A stretch of 64,000 nucleotides of DNA from assembly GCA_965203325.1 (NCBI GenBank), contig OZ241875.1, positions 320,001 through 384,000 of the forward strand. The letters are read 5' to 3'. A program made the translations under genes and the position numbers. Positions 51,488 to 58,936 of this stretch are shown in pieces; the stretch's first letter is position 1; each line of letters starts with the position of its first letter. Origin of the DNA: a bacterium (GTDB taxonomy: Bacteria; UBA8248). The notes beneath the pieces are model-generated. The model made no database searches and was not told the origin of the DNA. It saw nothing but the letters and a program-made list of their open reading frames with translations.

Positions 51488-52522
51488 TCACAAATAATCC
51501 TTAACCTCCACCGTTTCACCCAGGCGCGAGCTCGCGTCCGCCGCGTAGACGACGGCCAGGTTCTCGTGCGCCACGCGGCCGTCGACTTCGGGCGTTCTAT
51601 CCCCGCGCACGCAATCGGCGAAATCTTCCAGCGCATCGCGGAACATGTCCCCCTCGGGCATGTCGTATACCGAATCTTCCCCGAGCGGGTCCCGGTCCAC
51701 ATGCAGGCGGATGGGTTCTGACGCCTTGGAGGGGTCGCGCCACTGCTGGCCGGTGATGCGGAAATGCGCGACGCCCTTCGTGCCGTGCACGTTCATGTGA
51801 AACGCCCAGGGGCACGCCCAGCCCCCGCCGACGTAGGAGAGCGCGCCGTTCTCGTGCTCCAGGATCATCATCGAGGTGTCATCCACGTCCTCGGTCGCAT
51901 AGGCGCGCTTTAACTTCGCGGTGACGCTCCTGATCGGCCCGTGCAGGTAGCGGAAGGTGTCGATGTGGTGGATGGACAGCTGGATGACCACGCCGGTGGG
52001 GTTGAGTTCGCGGCTCGAGCGCCATCTGTCGGGCGTGAGTTCCAGCCCACGCTCGGTGCAGAAGTTGCTCTCGCTCATCGAGATTTTCCCGATTTCGCCC
52101 GCGTCTATCAGCTCCTTCATGCGGCGCGAGACGGCCAGACGGCGCGCGCTGTGGCCCACCGCCAGCTTGACGCCCACGCCCTCCGCCGCATCGACGATGG
52201 CCCTTGAGTGCTCCAGGCTGTGCGCGATGGGCTTTTCGCAATAGACGTGCTTGCCCGCGGCGGCCAGCGCCTCGATGTGTTCCTTGTGGTTATGGTTGGG
52301 CGTCGTGAGTATGACGGCCTCGATTTCATCGTCGCTCAAAAGCGCCTCGAAGCTCTCCGCCTCTCTCGCGCCGTAGCGCTCCATGAAGGCGCGGCGCTTT
52401 TCCGCCGTGCGGCTGTAGCACGAGACGATCCTGATTTTACCGCCGCGAAGTGCTGCGTCGGCGAGCACGTTTGCCCAGCGGCCCAGCCCCATCGAGGCGA
52501 CGCGCAGGGGTTCGAACGACAT
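51488..52522 (-). CDS. Gfo/Idh/MocA family oxidoreductase
   Basis: 'GLGRWA', 'AGKHVYCEKPIA', 'IHHIDTF'. Confidence 0.9.
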   Translation of the reverse strand: MSFEPLRVASMGLGRWANVLADAALRGGKIRIVSCYSRTAEKRRAFMERYGAREAESFEALLSDDEIEAVILTTPNHNHKEHIEALAAAGKHVYCEKPIAHSLEHSRAIVDAAEGVGVKLAVGHSARRLAVSRRMKELIDAGEIGKISMSESNFCTERGLELTPDRWRSSRELNPTGVVIQLSIHHIDTFRYLHGPIRSVTAKLKRAYATEDVDDTSMMILEHENGALSYVGGGWACPWAFHMNVHGTKGVAHFRITGQQWRDPSKASEPIRLHVDRDPLGEDSVYDMPEGDMFRDALEDFADCVRGDRTPEVDGRVAHENLAVVYAADASSRLGETVEVKDYL

Positions 52523-52575
52523 GTTGTTTCTCCTTGGAGTTAAATATCCGGGTGTCGGCTGAATCCAGTATTCAT

Positions 52576-52876
52576 GGGGTTGTTGAAAAGGCCCCCCATC
52601 GAGAGTGTTCGCCGGAATGAAGGGCGTTGTGATTTCTCAAAAGGATGTTCCCGTAGGGACGCTTCGTGAAGCGCCCGTTTCTCCAGTGGGTCGTTCGCGA
52701 ACGACCCCTACGTCACAACCAGAGACGGCGACCGTAGGGGCGACCCCCTGTGGTCGCCCTGCTCCCGCGCCCGTCCTGACGAAGGACAACCATGGAAGGC
52801 AGGACAGGCACGGGGGCCTGTCCCTACGAAAACCGCAAACCCTCCCACCCTCATCGGCTTTTTCCACAACCCCCTA
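52576..52876. mobile_element. MITE-like element with GTTGTTGAAAA ends enclosing two GTAG REP pairs
   Basis: Left GGGGTTGTTGAAAAG (52576), right CTTTTTCCACAACCCCCTA (52858-52876); REP pairs 52653-52711 and ~52734-52827. Confidence 0.6.
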
Positions 52877-52920
52877 TGAGGCGAATGAAACCCTGCAAAC
52901 GCACTCCATCTCTGCCGGCG

Positions 52921-53388
52921 TCAGATACTCACCTGGAAATTGGGCAGACGCACGCCCCCTCCCGCATCCGCCGGGGCCGCGCTCAACTCCTCGAGCGTGG
53001 TTTCGCGCAGCGTCTTGTCGATGGCGTCTTCGAGTTTTTTCCAAAGCGTACGGCTTCCGCATACCGGGATGTTCGGGCACGGCGCCGAGGGAGGCGCATC
53101 GCCGCAATCGACGGGCTGAATCGTCTCGCCCACCGCGCAGAGAACGTCGCGCATGTTGATCTCAGAAGGCGGCATGGCGAGGATGTAGCCGCCTCCCGGC
53201 CCCCTCGTGCTGCTCACCAGAGAGGCCCTGCGCATTTTCACGAACAATTGTTCGAGATAGTGCTGGCTGATGCCGAGCTTGCCTGCAATCTGCGGCAGGG
53301 GCACGGGATGCGTCTGCGAATGCCTCGCCAGCTCAATCATGGCGAGCACGGCGTATCGCCCCTTGGTCGATATCTTCATCGGCGGCAT
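52921..53388 (-). CDS. Rrf2 family transcriptional regulator (IscR/CymR-like)
   Basis: 'KISTKGRYAV', 'YLEQLF', 'STRGPGGGY', Cys triad 'VDC...PC...VC'. Confidence 0.92.
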   Translation of the reverse strand: MPPMKISTKGRYAVLAMIELARHSQTHPVPLPQIAGKLGISQHYLEQLFVKMRRASLVSSTRGPGGGYILAMPPSEINMRDVLCAVGETIQPVDCGDAPPSAPCPNIPVCGSRTLWKKLEDAIDKTLRETTLEELSAAPADAGGGVRLPNFQVSI

Positions 53389-53417
53389 CCTCTCATCGTC
53401 TCTCCCTGCCCCGAACG

Positions 53418-54227
53418 CTAAACGAGCGCACCACGCCCTGAGGGAATTTTCGTCTGCTTGCTCCCGGCGAGCGCGCAGGCAGGACAATCCGGGTCCTGTG
53501 CCACGCGCACGCTCCCGACGGCGTTTTTGCGTAAATCGGCCGCCATCAGCCTGTTCGACCAGGCAGGCGCAAGCCCCTTGAGAACACGCAGCGCGTCGGC
53601 AGCCTGCGCCATGCCCACGAAACCGGCCACCGCGCCGAAAACACCCGCATCCCCGCAGTCGAGGCCGCGGGCGTCCTCGCCCTCCTCGCCCACCAGACAC
53701 CGCAGGCACGCGCTCCGGCCCGGTAGAATCGTCATCATCTGGCCGAAAAAGCGTAAAATCCCGCCCATCACCCACGGCTTGCCGGCTGCGGCGCAGGCGT
53801 CGTTCAGCGCGAGTTTGGCGGCCAGGTTGTCGCTGCCATCAACGATGACGTCATAGGGCGCGATGATTCTGGCGGCGTTCCGGCGCGTGAGTTTCTGGGG
53901 AATCATGTCCACCGCTACCTCGGCGGAGAGCCTGAATATGGAATCGGCGCCCGAGTCCACCTTCAGGCGGCCGATGTCCTCGGTCCGGTGGAGAATCTGG
54001 CGGGCCAGGTTGTCGAGCGTCACCACGTCGTGATCCGCAAGGCCGACCCGTCCCACGCCCGCCGCCGCAAGGGCGAGCGCCGCGGGACAGCCCAGGCCGC
54101 CGACCCCCACGATGAGCGCGGATGAGCGCGCCAGAGCGCTTTTTTCGCTCATGCGCGCCGTGGATGCGCTCACGGACGCCGGCGGCGCTTCATCGGGCAA
54201 CCTCGCGCGTGGATTATGAAGGCTCAC
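53418..54227 (-). CDS. ThiF/MoeB family E1-like adenylyltransferase, catalytic-type subunit lacking the N-terminal RYSR segment
   Basis: 'IVGVGGLGCP', 'DHDVVTLDNLARQ', 'DGSDN', 'CLRC', 'LDCGDAG', 'CPAC'; start GTG 54227 (GTGA overlap) or ATG 54152. Confidence 0.88.
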   Translation of the reverse strand: MSLHNPRARLPDEAPPASVSASTARMSEKSALARSSALIVGVGGLGCPAALALAAAGVGRVGLADHDVVTLDNLARQILHRTEDIGRLKVDSGADSIFRLSAEVAVDMIPQKLTRRNAARIIAPYDVIVDGSDNLAAKLALNDACAAAGKPWVMGGILRFFGQMMTILPGRSACLRCLVGEEGEDARGLDCGDAGVFGAVAGFVGMAQAADALRVLKGLAPAWSNRLMAADLRKNAVGSVRVAQDPDCPACALAGSKQTKIPSGRGALV

Positions 54228-54718
54228 GCGCTTGTCTCCTCGAGAATTTCCAGATCGCTCTCGATAAAGGTCTTTTGCTCCGCGTCCCAGGAATACACCT
54301 TCTGCCCGAGCACCATGCCTTCCCGCACGCTCATGACGACGTGCTCGGCATCGGGAAACGCCGGGATATCCCCGAAAGGAACCGCCGCATCCACGTCTTC
54401 CTGCGAGAAATAGGCGTCCTCGTCCGGGTGGCTGTGGAATATGCCGCGAACCACCTCGCCCGCCTTCTCCGCTTCTCTCACGATGCGCTCGAACTCGAAG
54501 GGATCGATCAAGAATGCGCGCCGCGCCGTCCGCGGATAAAATTCGGGGTCTTTCTCGTGCATCTCGTTCTGCACGTTCCTGCAAGGCAGGAGGGCGAGCG
54601 ATTCCTCCTGTCCCCCCTTTGTGCGTGGTGGCCCTATGATCAGCCCGCAGCACTCATCGGGATACGCCTCGCGCGCGTGGCGGTGCATCGTCTCCACCTG
54701 TTCACGATTCAGACGCAA
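54224..54718 (-). CDS. JAMM/M67 metallopeptidase (Mec-like)
   Basis: 'AYPDECCG' and 'FHSHPDEDAYFSQED' (E...HxH-x7-S-x2-D); TTG start after GGGAGG. Confidence 0.9.
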   Translation of the reverse strand: MRLNREQVETMHRHAREAYPDECCGLIIGPPRTKGGQEESLALLPCRNVQNEMHEKDPEFYPRTARRAFLIDPFEFERIVREAEKAGEVVRGIFHSHPDEDAYFSQEDVDAAVPFGDIPAFPDAEHVVMSVREGMVLGQKVYSWDAEQKTFIESDLEILEETSA

Positions 54719-54732
54719 ACCAAACCTCCCTC

Positions 54733-54960
54733 GGGTTGGTTGAAAAAGTTCTGATTCAGTGGTTTGGTTCGACGTATGTGAAGGTGTATGTCGGACATAT
54801 ATGTCCGACATATATGCGACCCTGCCCTTTACGCCTGCCAACCACGGGCCGCATATATGCGGCCCCTACACGAGCAATCGCGCCCAATGCGGGCCTGTTG
54901 AAAAAGCCTTCGTCGGTCGGCTTGATTGCCCTCTCACCTACATGAAAACCAACCCCCCCT
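54733..54960. repeat. REP/MITE composite inside the sulfur-carrier operon
   Basis: GGGTTGGTTGAAAAAG; CATATATGCGACCCTG...GGGCCGCATATATGCGGCCCCTAC; CCTGTTGAAAAAGCC; AAAACCAACCCCCC; similar order to 19212-19326. Confidence 0.75.
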
Positions 54961-54962
54961 CC

Positions 54963-55901
54963 TCAGCGCGCTTCGCTCAGGTACCTGTCCCCCCCGTCGG
55001 GGAACAGGGTGACGATAACGCCCTTGCCTATCTGCTTCGCCACCTCGCGAACGCCCACGAGCGCAGCGCCCGCCGAATGCCCGATGAAAAGACCCTCTTC
55101 CTTGGCGATGCGCTCGGCGAGGTCGTAGCTTTCCTCGGTGCTCGCCAGAATCAGATTGTCGTGCACACCCTCATCGTAAATCTTCGGGCGAATGGCCGTG
55201 GGGATGTGCTTCATGCCCTCCAGGCCGTGAAACGATTCCGAGGGCATGACCGCATGCACCACGACGCCCGGTTTTCTCTCTTTCAGGCCGCGTCCCGTGC
55301 CCACCAGGGTGCCCGTGGTGCCGAGACCCGCAATGAAATGCCCCACGCGCCCGCCTGTCTGCTCCAGAATCTCTACAGCCGTGGTCTCGACGTGGGCGAG
55401 CGGGTTCGCCGGGTTGTCGTACTGACACGGCAGGAAATACTTCTCCGGCTCATCCTGATACATCTTCGCCGCCAGGCGCTGCGCGCCGTCCGAACCCTCC
55501 AGGGGATCCGAGAGAACGATATCGGCCCCGTAGCCCTTCAAGGTCGCCTTGCGCTCGTCGCTCGCGTTCGCAGGCAGGACGAGTCGGACGGGAACCCCGA
55601 GTGCTGCGCCGATCATGGCGTAGGCGATGCCGGTGTTGCCGCTCGTGGAATCGAGCAGAATCTTGCCGGGCCGCAACGCTCCCGTTTCCAGGCCGTCCTT
55701 CACCATGAAGAGCGCCGGCCTGTCCTTCACCGAACCGCCCGGGTTGAACCACTCCGCCTTGGCGAAGACCTCCACGTCCGGGAATTCGCTCTCGAACATC
55801 TTGATTTCGAGCAGGGGGGTGTTGCCGATACACTTGATGATTGGGGAATCCTCTAAATTTCTGAACGCGCTCGCGGGATTCGCCACCGTCGATTCGACCA
55901 T
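54963..55901 (-). CDS. cysteine synthase family protein (CysM-like)
   Basis: 'IGNTPL', 'NPGGSVKDRPA', 'STSGNTG', 'GLGTTGT', 'HGLEGMK', 'FPDGGDRYLS'. Confidence 0.9.
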   Translation of the reverse strand: MVESTVANPASAFRNLEDSPIIKCIGNTPLLEIKMFESEFPDVEVFAKAEWFNPGGSVKDRPALFMVKDGLETGALRPGKILLDSTSGNTGIAYAMIGAALGVPVRLVLPANASDERKATLKGYGADIVLSDPLEGSDGAQRLAAKMYQDEPEKYFLPCQYDNPANPLAHVETTAVEILEQTGGRVGHFIAGLGTTGTLVGTGRGLKERKPGVVVHAVMPSESFHGLEGMKHIPTAIRPKIYDEGVHDNLILASTEESYDLAERIAKEEGLFIGHSAGAALVGVREVAKQIGKGVIVTLFPDGGDRYLSEAR

Positions 55902-55934
55902 TGATATGGCCCTCGCGCTTTGCTCCTGAAAATC

Positions 55935-56585
55935 TCAGGAAAAATTCGCACGCGCCTCCATCAGGCCGTGCGAAAAATCGAATCGGGCCTGCGCAGTCGA
56001 CCCCACTGTATCCATTTCATCCACCAGATGCCGCAAGGCTCTCGCGGCCAGCCATGCGCCCAAAGCGCCCTGGGCCGCCACCGTTGATGCGCCCCCTCCA
56101 GGCGGCGTCACGTCCGGCTTCCCGAAAACGCCGGGGCCCTCGTGAATTTCTCCTGACTCCCCACGGGAGACGCCTCGGAGCGCGATTTTCGCCGAAGCCT
56201 CGCATCTCTCATCAACCGGGGCTCCTTCATCGCCCAGCCGGATGAGGACGTCGAAAACCTCCCCTGCTCCCTCGCCCGGGCGAACGGGAACCAGCCTCGA
56301 ATCGGGATTGAGCCTCTTGAGGCCACTCCCCAGGCTGCCGCCAAAGAAGGCGGAGAGCGGCGATTTCGGCTTAAGCCCATCGCTCTCATCGAGCGGACAC
56401 CAGCCGATGCGTCCCACGCCCGCCGCCGCCAGATAGACCAGGGCGGTGAGCGCCGCGCTCTCCTCATCCTCCGAATATGCGATGAGGACGGAAGACGCCA
56501 GCAGGCGCTCCTGGCCGGCTCCCCCCACTTCGGGGAGAAGAATGTGGCGGCTGTAGCGCTGAATCTGCTCTTCGCTCAAGCCCAA
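55935..56585 (-). CDS. degenerate ThiF/MoeB-like protein with RYSR finger but no P-loop
   Basis: 'LSEEQIQRYSRHILLPEVGGAGQERLLASSVLI', 'YLAAAGVGRI', 'LKRLNPD', 'GALGAWLAARALR'; GxGGxG, NLxRQ and CxxC motifs absent. Confidence 0.75.
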   Translation of the reverse strand: MGLSEEQIQRYSRHILLPEVGGAGQERLLASSVLIAYSEDEESAALTALVYLAAAGVGRIGWCPLDESDGLKPKSPLSAFFGGSLGSGLKRLNPDSRLVPVRPGEGAGEVFDVLIRLGDEGAPVDERCEASAKIALRGVSRGESGEIHEGPGVFGKPDVTPPGGGASTVAAQGALGAWLAARALRHLVDEMDTVGSTAQARFDFSHGLMEARANFS

Positions 56586-56617
56586 GGGGCGACTCTCCTC
56601 TCGGAGGATGCGGACGA

Positions 56618-56896
56618 TTACAGGCCGCCCGCGATGGCCGGCACGATGGAGACCTCATCCCCATCGCTCACCGCCGTTCCCTCTCCCTGCAGAAAGCGGA
56701 TGTCCTCCTGGTTCACATAAATGTTCACGAAACGCCGCAGCTTGCCCTCCTCGTCATAGAGGCGCTGGCCGATGCCCGCGAACTGGCCCTCGAGGTTCGC
56801 GAGCACTTCCTTCACGTCCGCGCCCGCGATCTCCACGGCGTCCTGCTGCTGTGTGAACTCCTGCAAAGGTGTCGGAATACGAACCGTTACCGCCAT
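56618..56896 (-). CDS. MoaD/ThiS/CysO-type ubiquitin-like sulfur carrier, C-terminus GG-L
   Basis: 'VTVRIPTPL', 'LRRFVNIYVNQEDIRFL', 'DGDEVSIVPAIAGGL'. Confidence 0.92.
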   Translation of the reverse strand: MAVTVRIPTPLQEFTQQQDAVEIAGADVKEVLANLEGQFAGIGQRLYDEEGKLRRFVNIYVNQEDIRFLQGEGTAVSDGDEVSIVPAIAGGL

Positions 56897-56949
56897 TTCT
56901 CTCTCCTGATCTGAAAACCCCGCTCTCCGGGGATGTTGAAGTAAGATTC

Positions 56950-57909
56950 CTAACGAAAATGCTGTTCCAGACTATAATATCTCTCCCAGCCGTCGGGAAT
57001 GACAACCACCACGTTTTCCTCGGGACTCATCCGCCGCGCCACCTCAAGAGCAGCACTTACCGCCGCTCCCGCCGAAATGCCTGCGGCCATGCCCTCTTCG
57101 CGGCTCAGGGCCTTGCTCATCTCATACGCCTCCGAATCGCTGACCGGCATCACCTCGTCGATGATCGCGCGGTTCAACACAGCGGGAATGAAGCCCGCGC
57201 CGATTCCCTGAATCTGGTGCGGGCCGGGCTCCCCGCCGGAAAGAACGGGAGATGCGGCGGGCTCCACGCCGATGACGAGCGTTTCAGGTCTTCTATCCTT
57301 CAGGACCTCCCCCACCCCCGTGATGGTGCCTCCCGTCCCCACGCCCGCCACGAAAGCGTCTATGGATTCCGCGCCCATATCGCGCAGAATCTCGCGCGCC
57401 GTGGTTCTGCGGTGGATTTCCGGGTTGGCCGGGTTGTTGAACTGCTGGGGCATGAAGTAGTCCGGGTTCTCCTCCAGGATGGCTTCGGCCAGTACTAGCG
57501 AGCCGTACATGCCGCCCTCGCTGGAGCTGAAGACCACCTCGGCCCCGTAGCCCGTGAGCAGGGAGTTGCGCTCGTGGCTCATGCTCTTGCTGAGCACGAT
57601 GATCGTCTTGTAGCCGCGAATCGCGCCGATGAGCGCCAGGCCGATGCCTGTGTTGCCGCTCGTGGGCTCGATGATCGTCCCGCCGGGCTTCAGGAGGCCG
57701 CGCCGCTCGCCGTCGAGCACCATGCTGAGCGCGATGCGATCCTTCACGCTTCCGCCGGGGTTGTATTGCTCGAGCTTGGCGAATACGCGCGCGCCGGACG
57801 CATCGGGCAGGCGTTGCAGCTGAACGAGGCTCGTGCCTCCGATGCGATCGATGAGCGAGGGAAGCGCCCTCAGAATCTGGGGCGGGCGACCCCGTGTTCC
57901 CAATGCCAT
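56950..57909 (-). CDS. cysK: cysteine synthase A
   Basis: 'NPGGSVKDRIA', 'EPTSGNTGIGLA', 'PQQFNNPAN', 'GVGTGGTITG', 'PHQIQGIGAGFIP'. Confidence 0.88.
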   Translation of the reverse strand: MALGTRGRPPQILRALPSLIDRIGGTSLVQLQRLPDASGARVFAKLEQYNPGGSVKDRIALSMVLDGERRGLLKPGGTIIEPTSGNTGIGLALIGAIRGYKTIIVLSKSMSHERNSLLTGYGAEVVFSSSEGGMYGSLVLAEAILEENPDYFMPQQFNNPANPEIHRRTTAREILRDMGAESIDAFVAGVGTGGTITGVGEVLKDRRPETLVIGVEPAASPVLSGGEPGPHQIQGIGAGFIPAVLNRAIIDEVMPVSDSEAYEMSKALSREEGMAAGISAGAAVSAALEVARRMSPEENVVVVIPDGWERYYSLEQHFR

Positions 57910-58114
57910 GAAAGTGCCCTTCCAGTTCTTTTTATACGGACCCAGACGAGCGTGAGCCTATAATTCCCAAACAAATTTGTCAAGAATTCCATCTTAAAGA
58001 GATTTCCCGTTTTTTCTCCTCCTCGACATATTCCCGACATACTCCCAATATATTCTCGGTGTGCTACATTTTCATGTCGCATCGCCTTATGATGTGACGC
58101 GAAAGGAGAAAGAC

Positions 58115-58936
58115 ATGGCGAAACCCGAGAGCCTGCCCCCCATCGCCTTGACGATAGCGGGCTCGGATTCGGGCGGCGGAGCCGGGATTCAGGCGGATAT
58201 CAAGACTTTCAGCGCATTCGGCGTCTACGGCGCCTCGGTCATCACCGCGCTGACGGCGCAGAACACCGTGGGCGTGCAGGGGGTGCACGGCGCGCCGCCC
58301 GATTTCATCGCGGCGCAATTCGACTCGGTGTGCACGGATTTGGACGTGGCGAGCGCGAAAATCGGTATGCTCGCCACGGTCGACGTCATCGAGGTCGTCG
58401 CTGCGAAGCTCAAAGAGCACGCGCTCGCGCGCGTCGTGCTCGACCCGGTGATGGTCGCCAAAAGCGGAGACCGCCTGCTCGCGCCCGATGCGAGAGAGGC
58501 GCTCGTCGAAAAACTTTTCCCGCTGGCCGAGGTCGTCACCCCCAATACGGAAGAGGCGCGCGACATTCTGGAGACCGGAGAAATCGAAAACCTCGCGCAG
58601 ATGAGAGACGCCGCCCGGGCGCTTCATGAGCGCGGGGCGAAATGCGTACTGCTCAAAGGAGGCCACATCACCTACGGGGCTGTGGACATTTTCTTCGACG
58701 GCGAAAATGAGGTCGCGCTCGAGGGCAGGCGGGTCGACACCCCCCATACCCACGGTACGGGGTGCACGCTCTCTTCCGCCATCGCGGCGGGGCTTGCGCT
58801 GGGGGATTCCACCACCTCGGCGGTGAGGCGGGCGAAAGATTTCATCCAGGGCGCCATCGAGAACGCGCTCGCCATCGGAAACGGCCGAGGCCCGCTCAAC
58901 CACATGTACCGCCAACGCGAGGGAAAATCGCCATGA
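58115..58936 (+). CDS. thiD: hydroxymethylpyrimidine/phosphomethylpyrimidine kinase
   Basis: 'LTIAGSDSGGGAGIQADIKT', 'TAQNT', 'DPVMVAKSG', 'HTHGTGCTLS'. Confidence 0.95.
   Translation: MAKPESLPPIALTIAGSDSGGGAGIQADIKTFSAFGVYGASVITALTAQNTVGVQGVHGAPPDFIAAQFDSVCTDLDVASAKIGMLATVDVIEVVAAKLKEHALARVVLDPVMVAKSGDRLLAPDAREALVEKLFPLAEVVTPNTEEARDILETGEIENLAQMRDAARALHERGAKCVLLKGGHITYGAVDIFFDGENEVALEGRRVDTPHTHGTGCTLSSAIAAGLALGDSTTSAVRRAKDFIQGAIENALAIGNGRGPLNHMYRQREGKSP

Follow-up and report, generated by a model that had tools for sequence, protein, structure and literature searches.

Can the adenylating enzyme of a bacterial sulfur carrier be divided between two unequal proteins, one holding the active site and the other holding what the first has lost? 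This question is raised by an operon in a 64,000-nucleotide stretch of DNA (GenBank assembly GCA_965203325.1, contig OZ241875.1, positions 320,001 to 384,000 of the forward strand; hereafter the window) from a Nitrospinota bacterium of the lineage UBA8248. Judged by its genes, which are closely spaced, the operon is devoted to cysteine synthesis, and two of these genes, A (53418..54227) and B (55935..56585), encode relatives of the E1-like enzymes ThiF and MoeB. In our view, A and B probably associate as a heterodimer whose dedicated task is the E1-like activation of the ThiS-like carrier encoded in the same operon. The motifs of the two proteins are complementary, B matches the ThiF fold, the genes occur and are lost together, B is under purifying selection, and natural fusions of comparable domains exist.

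Protein A has an active site of the ThiF/MoeB type. It carries GVGGLG, DNLARQ and DGSDN, the cysteine pairs CLRC and CPAC, and a cysteine at the position of MoeB Cys187, and it scores 209.1 bits against Pfam ThiF (PF00899; cut-off, 28.1) over profile positions 14 to 238 of 238. In the alignment with E. coli MoeB (1jw9; 136 bits, E 1.5e-38), residue 6 of the 245-amino-acid (aa) form of A falls on MoeB residue 27; the N terminus of A thus lies near MoeB residue 22, and the segment that bears Arg14 is missing. Together with ThiF Arg11, MoeB Arg14 is an arginine finger supplied by the neighboring subunit, and the passages of PMC13139853 that treat these fingers report them as not essential. An RYxRQ motif is obtained from neither possible start of A, the GTG at 54227 or the ATG at 54155, of which the ATG is the conserved start (245 aa), most orthologues being 244 aa long from the equivalent Met. 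A itself is 245 to 269 aa in length and has no catalytic-cysteine domain insertion. We aligned 23 sequences, comprising 17 orthologues (51 to 90% identical to the A of the window) and the 6 nearest nonorthologous ThiF proteins (39 to 47%). The P-loop, the equivalents of MoeB Arg73, Lys86 and Asp130, the four zinc cysteines, and the Cys187 equivalent are invariant in this alignment, and A retains the dimer helix along with all of the active-site residues. RYxRQ, by comparison, is absent from all 17 orthologues and present in five of the six other proteins; the sixth, P0206 (240 aa), likewise starts late. The genome of the window also encodes a canonical 399-aa rhodanese-MoeB that bears its own RYSRH. 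A third, weak match to the ThiF family in this genome (G000:C1:3849674-3850105; 41.8 bits, profile positions 22 to 171) lies within an open frame of 496 aa.

Protein B keeps the N-terminal segment that A lacks. It opens with the RYSRHILLPEVGGAGQ segment, has IAYSEDEESA in place of the GxGGxG loop, and retains YLAAAGVG, RLNPD, and a C-terminal GALGAWLAARALR helix. GxGGxG, NLxRQ, DxxDN, and the CxxC zinc cysteines are all absent. No Pfam family matches B at an E value of 0.01 or lower, so the gathering score of PF00899 is not reached, and the NCBIfam MoeB/ThiF models cover just residues 3 to 69 (model positions 5 to 62 of 250), far under their cut-offs. The AlphaFold2 (AF2) model of B (predicted local distance difference test [pLDDT], 69.2; predicted template modeling score [pTM], 0.73) has ThiF 1zud as its top Foldseek match (E 1e-9; query TM-score [TMq], 0.67), and further matches include Uba4 6yub, MoeB 1jw9, and chains of SAE1. 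Because these matches are to ThiF, Uba4, and MoeB and the catalytic motifs are gone, B as modeled is a whole ThiF fold that has been catalytically stripped. The family is not confined to the window: about 70 of the best 120 matches of a sequence search belong to it, down to 38% identity, and those that are named come from Nitrospinae/Nitrospinota. Across 25 aligned members, the invariant N-terminal positions are R10, Y11, S12, H14, L16, L17, P18, G21, G24, and Q25; the other invariant positions fall in the YLxxxGxG stretch, at N93 and D95, in the helix near G173/G176, and in a C-terminal VGSTxQARFD. R13, which is Arg in 24 of the 25 members, corresponds by alignment to MoeB Arg14 (profile position 2 being MoeB residue 3). 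None of these members shares an invariant cysteine that could carry a persulfide.

An earlier note on this DNA, made from the letters alone, had pointed to these two genes as complementary halves of an obligate inactive/active heterodimer. All of the sequence features that it listed for A and B are present where it placed them, and its remark that A has no RYSR from either start is borne out. Because both features hold across the aligned orthologues and across 21 syntenic operons, the complementarity of the two motif sets is, at the level of sequence, more than chance. The operon occupies 52921 to 57909 of the minus strand, and its seven genes, in the order of transcription, are as follows.

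56950..57909, minus strand: cysK-type cysteine synthase, the first gene of the operon (Pfam PALP, 8.7e-77; NCBIfam TIGR01139 cysK, 396.5 bits, above the cut-off of 350.95)
56618..56896, minus strand: ThiS/MoaD/SAMP-like sulfur carrier of 92 aa, with a C terminus of GG plus one residue (L) (Pfam ThiS, 2e-17)
55935..56585, minus strand: B, apparently catalytically dead ThiF-fold protein of 216 aa that retains the RYSRH segment and the dimer helix
54963..55901, minus strand: cysM-like cysteine synthase of 312 aa (Pfam PALP, 3.2e-63)
54224..54841, minus strand: JAMM/Prok-JAB metallopeptidase (Pfam Prok-JAB, 6.8e-20)
53418..54227, minus strand: A, active-type ThiF/MoeB adenylation domain without the N-terminal RYxRQ (Pfam ThiF, 7.1e-62)
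52921..~53400, minus strand: Rrf2-family regulator (IscR/CymR-like), the last gene of the operon (Pfam Rrf2, 1.9e-36; TIGR00738, 126.7 bits, above the cut-off of 73.3)

Do A and B travel together? The earlier note had proposed a survey of genomes for their co-occurrence, and the outcome agrees with it. Of 51 Nitrospinota genomes, 30 contain full-length B (E 4e-66 or better); an orthologue of A accompanies it in 29 of these 30 and, by the same criterion, is present in none of the other 21. The assignment of A is clear-cut, as scores against the A profile are bimodal: they run from 336 to 448 bits in the 29 genomes, and every other match, chiefly to the canonical enzyme of about 400 aa, scores 255 bits or less. 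The sole genome with B and without A is G022, in which the contig bearing B ends before the position of A; this case apart, none of the 51 genomes has just one gene of the pair. An apparent divergent pair occurs in G009, a member of another family, on two short contigs, one with cysK, ThiS, and a B-like N terminus and the other with cysM, JAMM, and then an A-like gene 49% identical to A. In G029, the whole pair is found twice (contigs C6 and C8); the contamination estimate for this genome is 16%.

The genomes that lack the pair are equally telling. Seven of them (G023, G034, G039, G010, G037, G042, and G038) retain cysK, ThiS, cysM, JAMM, and Rrf2 in that order with A and B both gone, and two of the seven, G023 and G034, share a genus with the window. 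The two missing genes are not adjacent, since cysM and JAMM lie between them. Remnants persist in the gaps: both ends of B in G037 (E 9e-13), the C-terminal motif of B in G023 (8.7e-7), and the C-terminal end of A in G010 (1.2e-5). The absence of the pair is therefore the product of losses rather than gains. When the joint state of the pair is mapped onto a tree built from cysK, cysM, and ThiS, five changes are required, at least three of which are forced by well-supported branches, and this pattern in the sequences implies at least three joint losses of A and B. In G038 (L123, 7076-7240), the interval from ThiS to JAMM retains no more of cysM than its final 70 residues, and this operon may be decaying further.

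Selection on B was gauged by the ratio of nonsynonymous to synonymous substitution rates (dN/dS), taken as the median of pairwise Nei-Gojobori estimates among 21 genomes (115 to 163 pairs with dS of 0.05 to 1.5, the pairs not being independent of one another). The ratio for the whole of B is 0.37, and it is 0.17 for residues 1 to 65, 0.49 for residues 66 to 165, and 0.28 for residues 166 to 216. The values for the remaining genes are 0.27 for A, 0.175 for JAMM, 0.14 for Rrf2, and about 0.10 for cysK, ThiS, and cysM. B is the fastest-evolving gene of the operon, yet it is clearly constrained.

We predicted the complex of A (245 aa; 49-row alignment) and B (52-row alignment) together with adenosine triphosphate (ATP). 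The A:B pairing received ipSAE scores of 0.92, 0.92, and 0.91, and the highest-scoring of three controls received 0.00; in calibration, 116 of 157 solved complexes and 2 of 215 mismatched pairs attained the mark used for this score. The runs share at least 95% of their contacts, and the pLDDT of the partner is at least 80. The confident interface places residues 6, 9 to 14, 16 to 17, and 19 to 20 of B, which make up the RYSRH segment, on residues 47 to 48, 50 to 52, 54, and 57 to 59 of A, and the glycine-rich helices of the two proteins (A 168-190, B 168-185) pack together in the model. The contacted stretch of A is DNLARQ, which holds the Arg73 equivalent; the reported contacts are those between the proteins, none being given for ATP. 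The predicted interface residues of B are better conserved than the remainder of the protein (0.72 versus 0.58; Mann-Whitney p 2e-4), and of the 46 positions at which 90% or more of B sequences agree, 21 fall within this interface, which comprises 55 of the 216 residues.

A wider search places B among many degenerate relatives. A profile of B, run against 1.84 billion representative sequences, gave 8356 matches at an E value of 0.001 or lower, and we examined 147 sequences, namely 142 of the best 150 of these 8356 and 5 from other searches. Fifty-two of the 147 are at least 180 aa long and have an RYxRQ-type N terminus and no GxGGxG; all but two of the 52 are also without NLxRQ and DxxDN. They include at least 48 clusters (50% identity) of degenerate, RYxRQ-only ThiF proteins outside the Nitrospinota family, many of which keep two CxxC pairs. 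R10, Y11, R13, G21, G24, and Q25 are invariant among 38 diverse degenerate homologues and the B of the window (39 aligned sequences).

Five proteins among the matches listed have two ThiF-like domains: P0250, P0361, P0344, P0310, and the incomplete P0286. In P0250, P0361, P0344, and P0286, the N-terminal half is degenerate, bears RYxRQ, and matches the degenerate profiles from position 1 or 2, and the match of the C-terminal half to the A profile (121 to 226 bits) begins at positions 3 to 5, with a single RYxRQ per protein. These natural fusions of a dead and an active domain lend Rosetta-stone support to the idea that the two domain types act as a pseudodimer. The AF2 model of P0361, which is of modest quality (pLDDT 65.7, pTM 0.78, five input sequences), has single-chain eukaryotic E1s as its best whole-length Foldseek matches, namely UBA7 8oif (TMq 0.62) followed by UBA6 and UBA1; MoeB and ThiF cover one half of the model, with a TMq of about 0.40. 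P0310 (433 aa) has an N-terminal KYMKH for RYxRQ and a C-terminal half with GCGGEG and without NLxRQ or CxxC, and both of its halves may be degenerate.

How might such an enzyme work? We infer that A and B bind one another and that catalysis proceeds at a single site. A would contribute the sole ATP site, the zinc site, and the crossover-loop cysteine. B, a dead paralogue, would complete the ThiF-type dimer as its other half and provide in trans the RYSRH segment, in which R13 stands for MoeB Arg14. Because A is without the Arg segment and B is without an active site, such a dimer could have no more than one site. Across 21 genomes, the GG of the carrier is followed by one or two residues, with a longer tail in one, and this cap means that a peptidase must expose the GG. 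The JAMM peptidase would remove the residue or residues beyond GG, whereupon the carrier would be adenylated by A:B and then thiocarboxylated, A itself having no rhodanese domain. Following the published CysO/CysM/Mec pathway, the cysM-like synthase would use the thiocarboxylate to form a carrier-cysteine adduct, from which the JAMM peptidase would free cysteine.

This scheme draws on several characterized systems and departs from each of them. The closest in fold are the E. coli MoeB-MoaD and ThiF-ThiS pairs (1jw9, 1zud): A keeps their catalytic residues, B has the same fold, and the carrier is of the GG-type beta-grasp kind. The known enzymes differ in being homodimers, described as having both subunits active in parts of a 2025 review (PMC12355090) and as having two active sites, each completed by the N-terminal Arg of the partner, in passages of PMC13139853. 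The actinobacterial CysO-CysM-Mec-MoeZ system, in the portions of the literature that describe it, likewise unites a ThiS-like carrier, a CysM-type synthase, a JAMM peptidase, and a ThiF-family activator; activation there falls to MoeZ alone, which includes a rhodanese domain, whereas the A/B pair has none and a rhodanese-MoeB is encoded elsewhere in the genome. Eukaryotic NAE1-UBA3 and SAE1-UBA2 also combine an inactive and an active adenylation fold, and the inactive subunit gives the N-terminal Arg (as stated in passages of PMC10557695), but A and B are without the catalytic-cysteine domain insertion, the ubiquitin-fold domain, and the E2, and the carrier of the A/B operon would feed sulfur chemistry rather than protein conjugation. 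Because A nests among bacterial ThiF/MoeB proteins, the origin of the pair is independent of the eukaryotic heterodimeric E1s.

The nearest bacterial parallel is BilD, in which an inactive and an active adenylation domain form a pseudodimer and Arg9 comes from the inactive domain, as set out in sections of the preprint by Chambers et al. (2023; PMC10557695). The inactive-plus-active layout is common to both, the heterodimer of A and B being a predicted one. BilD, however, is one polypeptide with a CYS domain, accompanied by an E2 and a deubiquitinase and acting in phage defense, whereas A and B are separate genes in a cysteine synthesis operon. According to the same passages of PMC10557695, all known bacterial E1-like proteins other than BilD form homodimers. 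Yeast Tcd1-Tcd2, the dehydratase that forms cyclic N6-threonylcarbamoyladenosine (ct6A), is treated in parts of a 2026 paper in Nucleic Acids Research (NAR; PMC13139853): Tcd1 gives an arginine finger and is without the ATP-binding Arg, and Tcd2 has the catalytic residues. These are two ThiF-family paralogues with the same division of labor as the one that we propose for A and B; Tcd1-Tcd2 differs in being eukaryotic, in acting on tRNA, and in binding nucleotide with both subunits. The R59A finger mutant of Tcd1-Tcd2 lost just 26% of activity, as given in the same source passages. Our literature searches turned up no bacterial ThiF/MoeB heterodimer encoded by two genes, an earlier mention being possible in the article by Burroughs et al. 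(2009), which deals with the E1-like superfamily; the "inactive" passages located in the work of Iyer et al. (2006) are about E2-like domains alone.

Several points weigh against a heterodimeric enzyme. The high ipSAE score may stem from the memory that the model has of solved ThiF/MoeB homodimers, because such structures exist and the score may reflect likeness to them; it also covers the A:B pairing alone, so that no preference over A:A or B:B follows from it. Co-loss is evidence of functional coupling and not of physical contact. The finger Arg of B is not strictly invariant, as the cluster P0059 (22 sequences) reads RYSHH, which puts His where the finger would be, and B outpaces every neighboring gene in divergence (41 to 95% identity between genomes, against 74 to 98% for cysK). 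The canonical rhodanese-MoeB presumably serves the carrier in genomes without A and B. Finally, because the finger arginines in both MoeB and ThiF are reported not to be essential, A might function without B. The heterodimer of the earlier note thus gains from the co-occurrence, the selection, and the A:B model, while its word "obligate" is unproven. The model places RYSRH on the NLARQ stretch of A; the note had asked about a contact between Arg and ATP, and the contacts reported are those between the two proteins.

The most serious competitor, which we nonetheless regard as unlikely, has B bound to A without helping in catalysis: B might regulate A, for instance as a "poison" subunit that confines activity to a single site, or act as an adaptor, for instance a scaffold on which the carrier, CysM, or a sulfur donor docks. 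The dimer prediction and the co-loss are as compatible with such a role as with a catalytic one, and the same can be said of the dispensable fingers described in passages of PMC13139853, the His of P0059, and the fast-evolving middle third of B (dN/dS 0.49). What this reading accounts for poorly is that the best-conserved part of B is exactly the segment lost from A, that R10, Y11, and R13 are invariant in the 39 aligned diverse degenerate homologues, and that in the fusions the dead domain lies N-terminal of the active one with a single RYxRQ; a sulfur-handling role, moreover, finds no invariant cysteine for a persulfide. Less probable still is that A acts alone as a finger-less homodimer and that B serves the pathway separately without binding A. 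A does keep its dimer helix and all of its active-site residues, and parts of PMC13139853 describe the finger as nonessential for both MoeB and ThiF and as missing from E. coli TcdA, but this alternative leaves unexplained the purifying selection on the ThiF dimer helix and RYSRH of B, the joint gain and loss of two nonadjacent genes, and the fusion of both domain types in other lineages. That B is a functionless, decaying relic of a duplicated ThiF gene we hold to be very improbable indeed. It has no Pfam match, it is the fastest-evolving gene of the operon, and in G048 (G048:C79:65631-66275) its frame contains a single TAG; against this, the frame is intact in 29 of the 30 genomes with B, down to about 40% identity, the dN/dS is 0.37 overall and 0.17 at the N terminus, and where the pair has been lost, B is cut to short remnants rather than left as a full-length open frame. 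We accordingly rejected B as a decaying pseudogene on its intact frames and dN/dS, and the neutral decay that the earlier note had named as a sign against its reading is not what we find.

From what ancestral arrangement could the pair have come? One locus, L010 (3653-9978), from a metagenome-assembled genome (MAG) labeled Nitrospinota (G053), has the order cysK, ThiS, ThiF, cysM, JAMM, ThiF, Rrf2, and both of its ThiF genes are complete, each with RYSRH, GAGGLG, and NLQRQ. Judged from its gene order, L010 may represent the state before degeneration, with duplication followed by complementary degeneration; it is gene order that suggests this, because the tree of ThiF domains does not resolve descent. 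In that tree, A forms one clade (support, 100) and B another (support, 97), B sits on a long branch that the tree does not place, and A and the L010 gene are not grouped together. Two complete ThiF genes are carried by 27 of 74 nonorthologous loci, mostly from Nitrospira and its relatives, and a P-loop-less ThiF is found in none of the 74. In two-ThiF operons (L007, L008, L013, L018, L031, and 21 others), the ThiF genes lie about 1.8 kb apart, in company with cysK, ThiS-like, and JAMM genes. A metagenome scan with P0251 returned one locus, which contains a canonical ThiF, and a profile of diverse degenerate proteins (A6) gives canonical ThiF about 200 bits and so cannot separate both types in whole-genome searches. 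As a tentative and rather doubtful extension, these loci may trace a recurrent bacterial route to E1 asymmetry that leads from two complete ThiF paralogues (L010) through complementary degeneration (the window) to single-chain fusions (P0361, P0344, and P0250).

The remaining genes define the setting of the pair. The seven-gene order of the window is identical in all 20 further operons that we fetched (21/21), with cysK at a constant position in each of the 21. A GG-type ThiS-like carrier, a CysM-type synthase, and a JAMM peptidase occur together (Pfam ThiS, PALP, and Prok-JAB), which is the combination of a CysO-type operon. The carrier scores 54.2 bits against NCBIfam SAMP1, under the cut-off of 60, and the cysM-like synthase scores 342.5 bits against TIGR01138 cysM, under the equivalog cut-off of 394.2. 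Orthologues of the JAMM peptidase align only from residues 17 to 47 onward, and because the conserved part begins at about residue 37 of the open reading frame in the window, the true start may sit further in; the JAMM stop overlaps the GTG start of A (GTGA). There is no E2 among the seven operon genes, all of which fall to other families by Pfam and NCBIfam, and Rfam gives no RNA element at an E value of 0.1 or lower over 52500 to 58500.

Contigs from two sponge metatranscriptome libraries (X22 and X23) extend across B and the points where it meets cysM and ThiS, covering 55681-56367, 56424-56994, 55814-56072, and 56506-57045; they are 88 to 95% identical to the window and hence come from relatives, and contigs from RNA libraries do not prove transcription. 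Most of A is not covered by these contigs, which is uninformative either way. Public runs that contain most of 52921-57909 include several labeled as sponge or coral metagenomes.

Current annotation misses the pairing because Pfam assigns B-type proteins to no family, and those of the A type carry just the name MoeB or ThiF. If A and B form the heterodimer that we propose, a conserved two-gene pair would alter the picture of bacterial ThiF/MoeB E1-like enzymes as symmetric homodimers, and the asymmetry typical of eukaryotic E1s would also have arisen inside ordinary sulfur metabolism. At about 245 plus 216 residues, the pair is a small and tractable system for the contribution of the "nonessential" finger and of a second subunit. 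Should the recurrent route hold as well, two-subunit and pseudodimeric sulfur-carrier E1s would be widespread and unrecognized, and the inactive/active layout of eukaryotic E1s would have had prokaryotic precursors outside phage defense systems.

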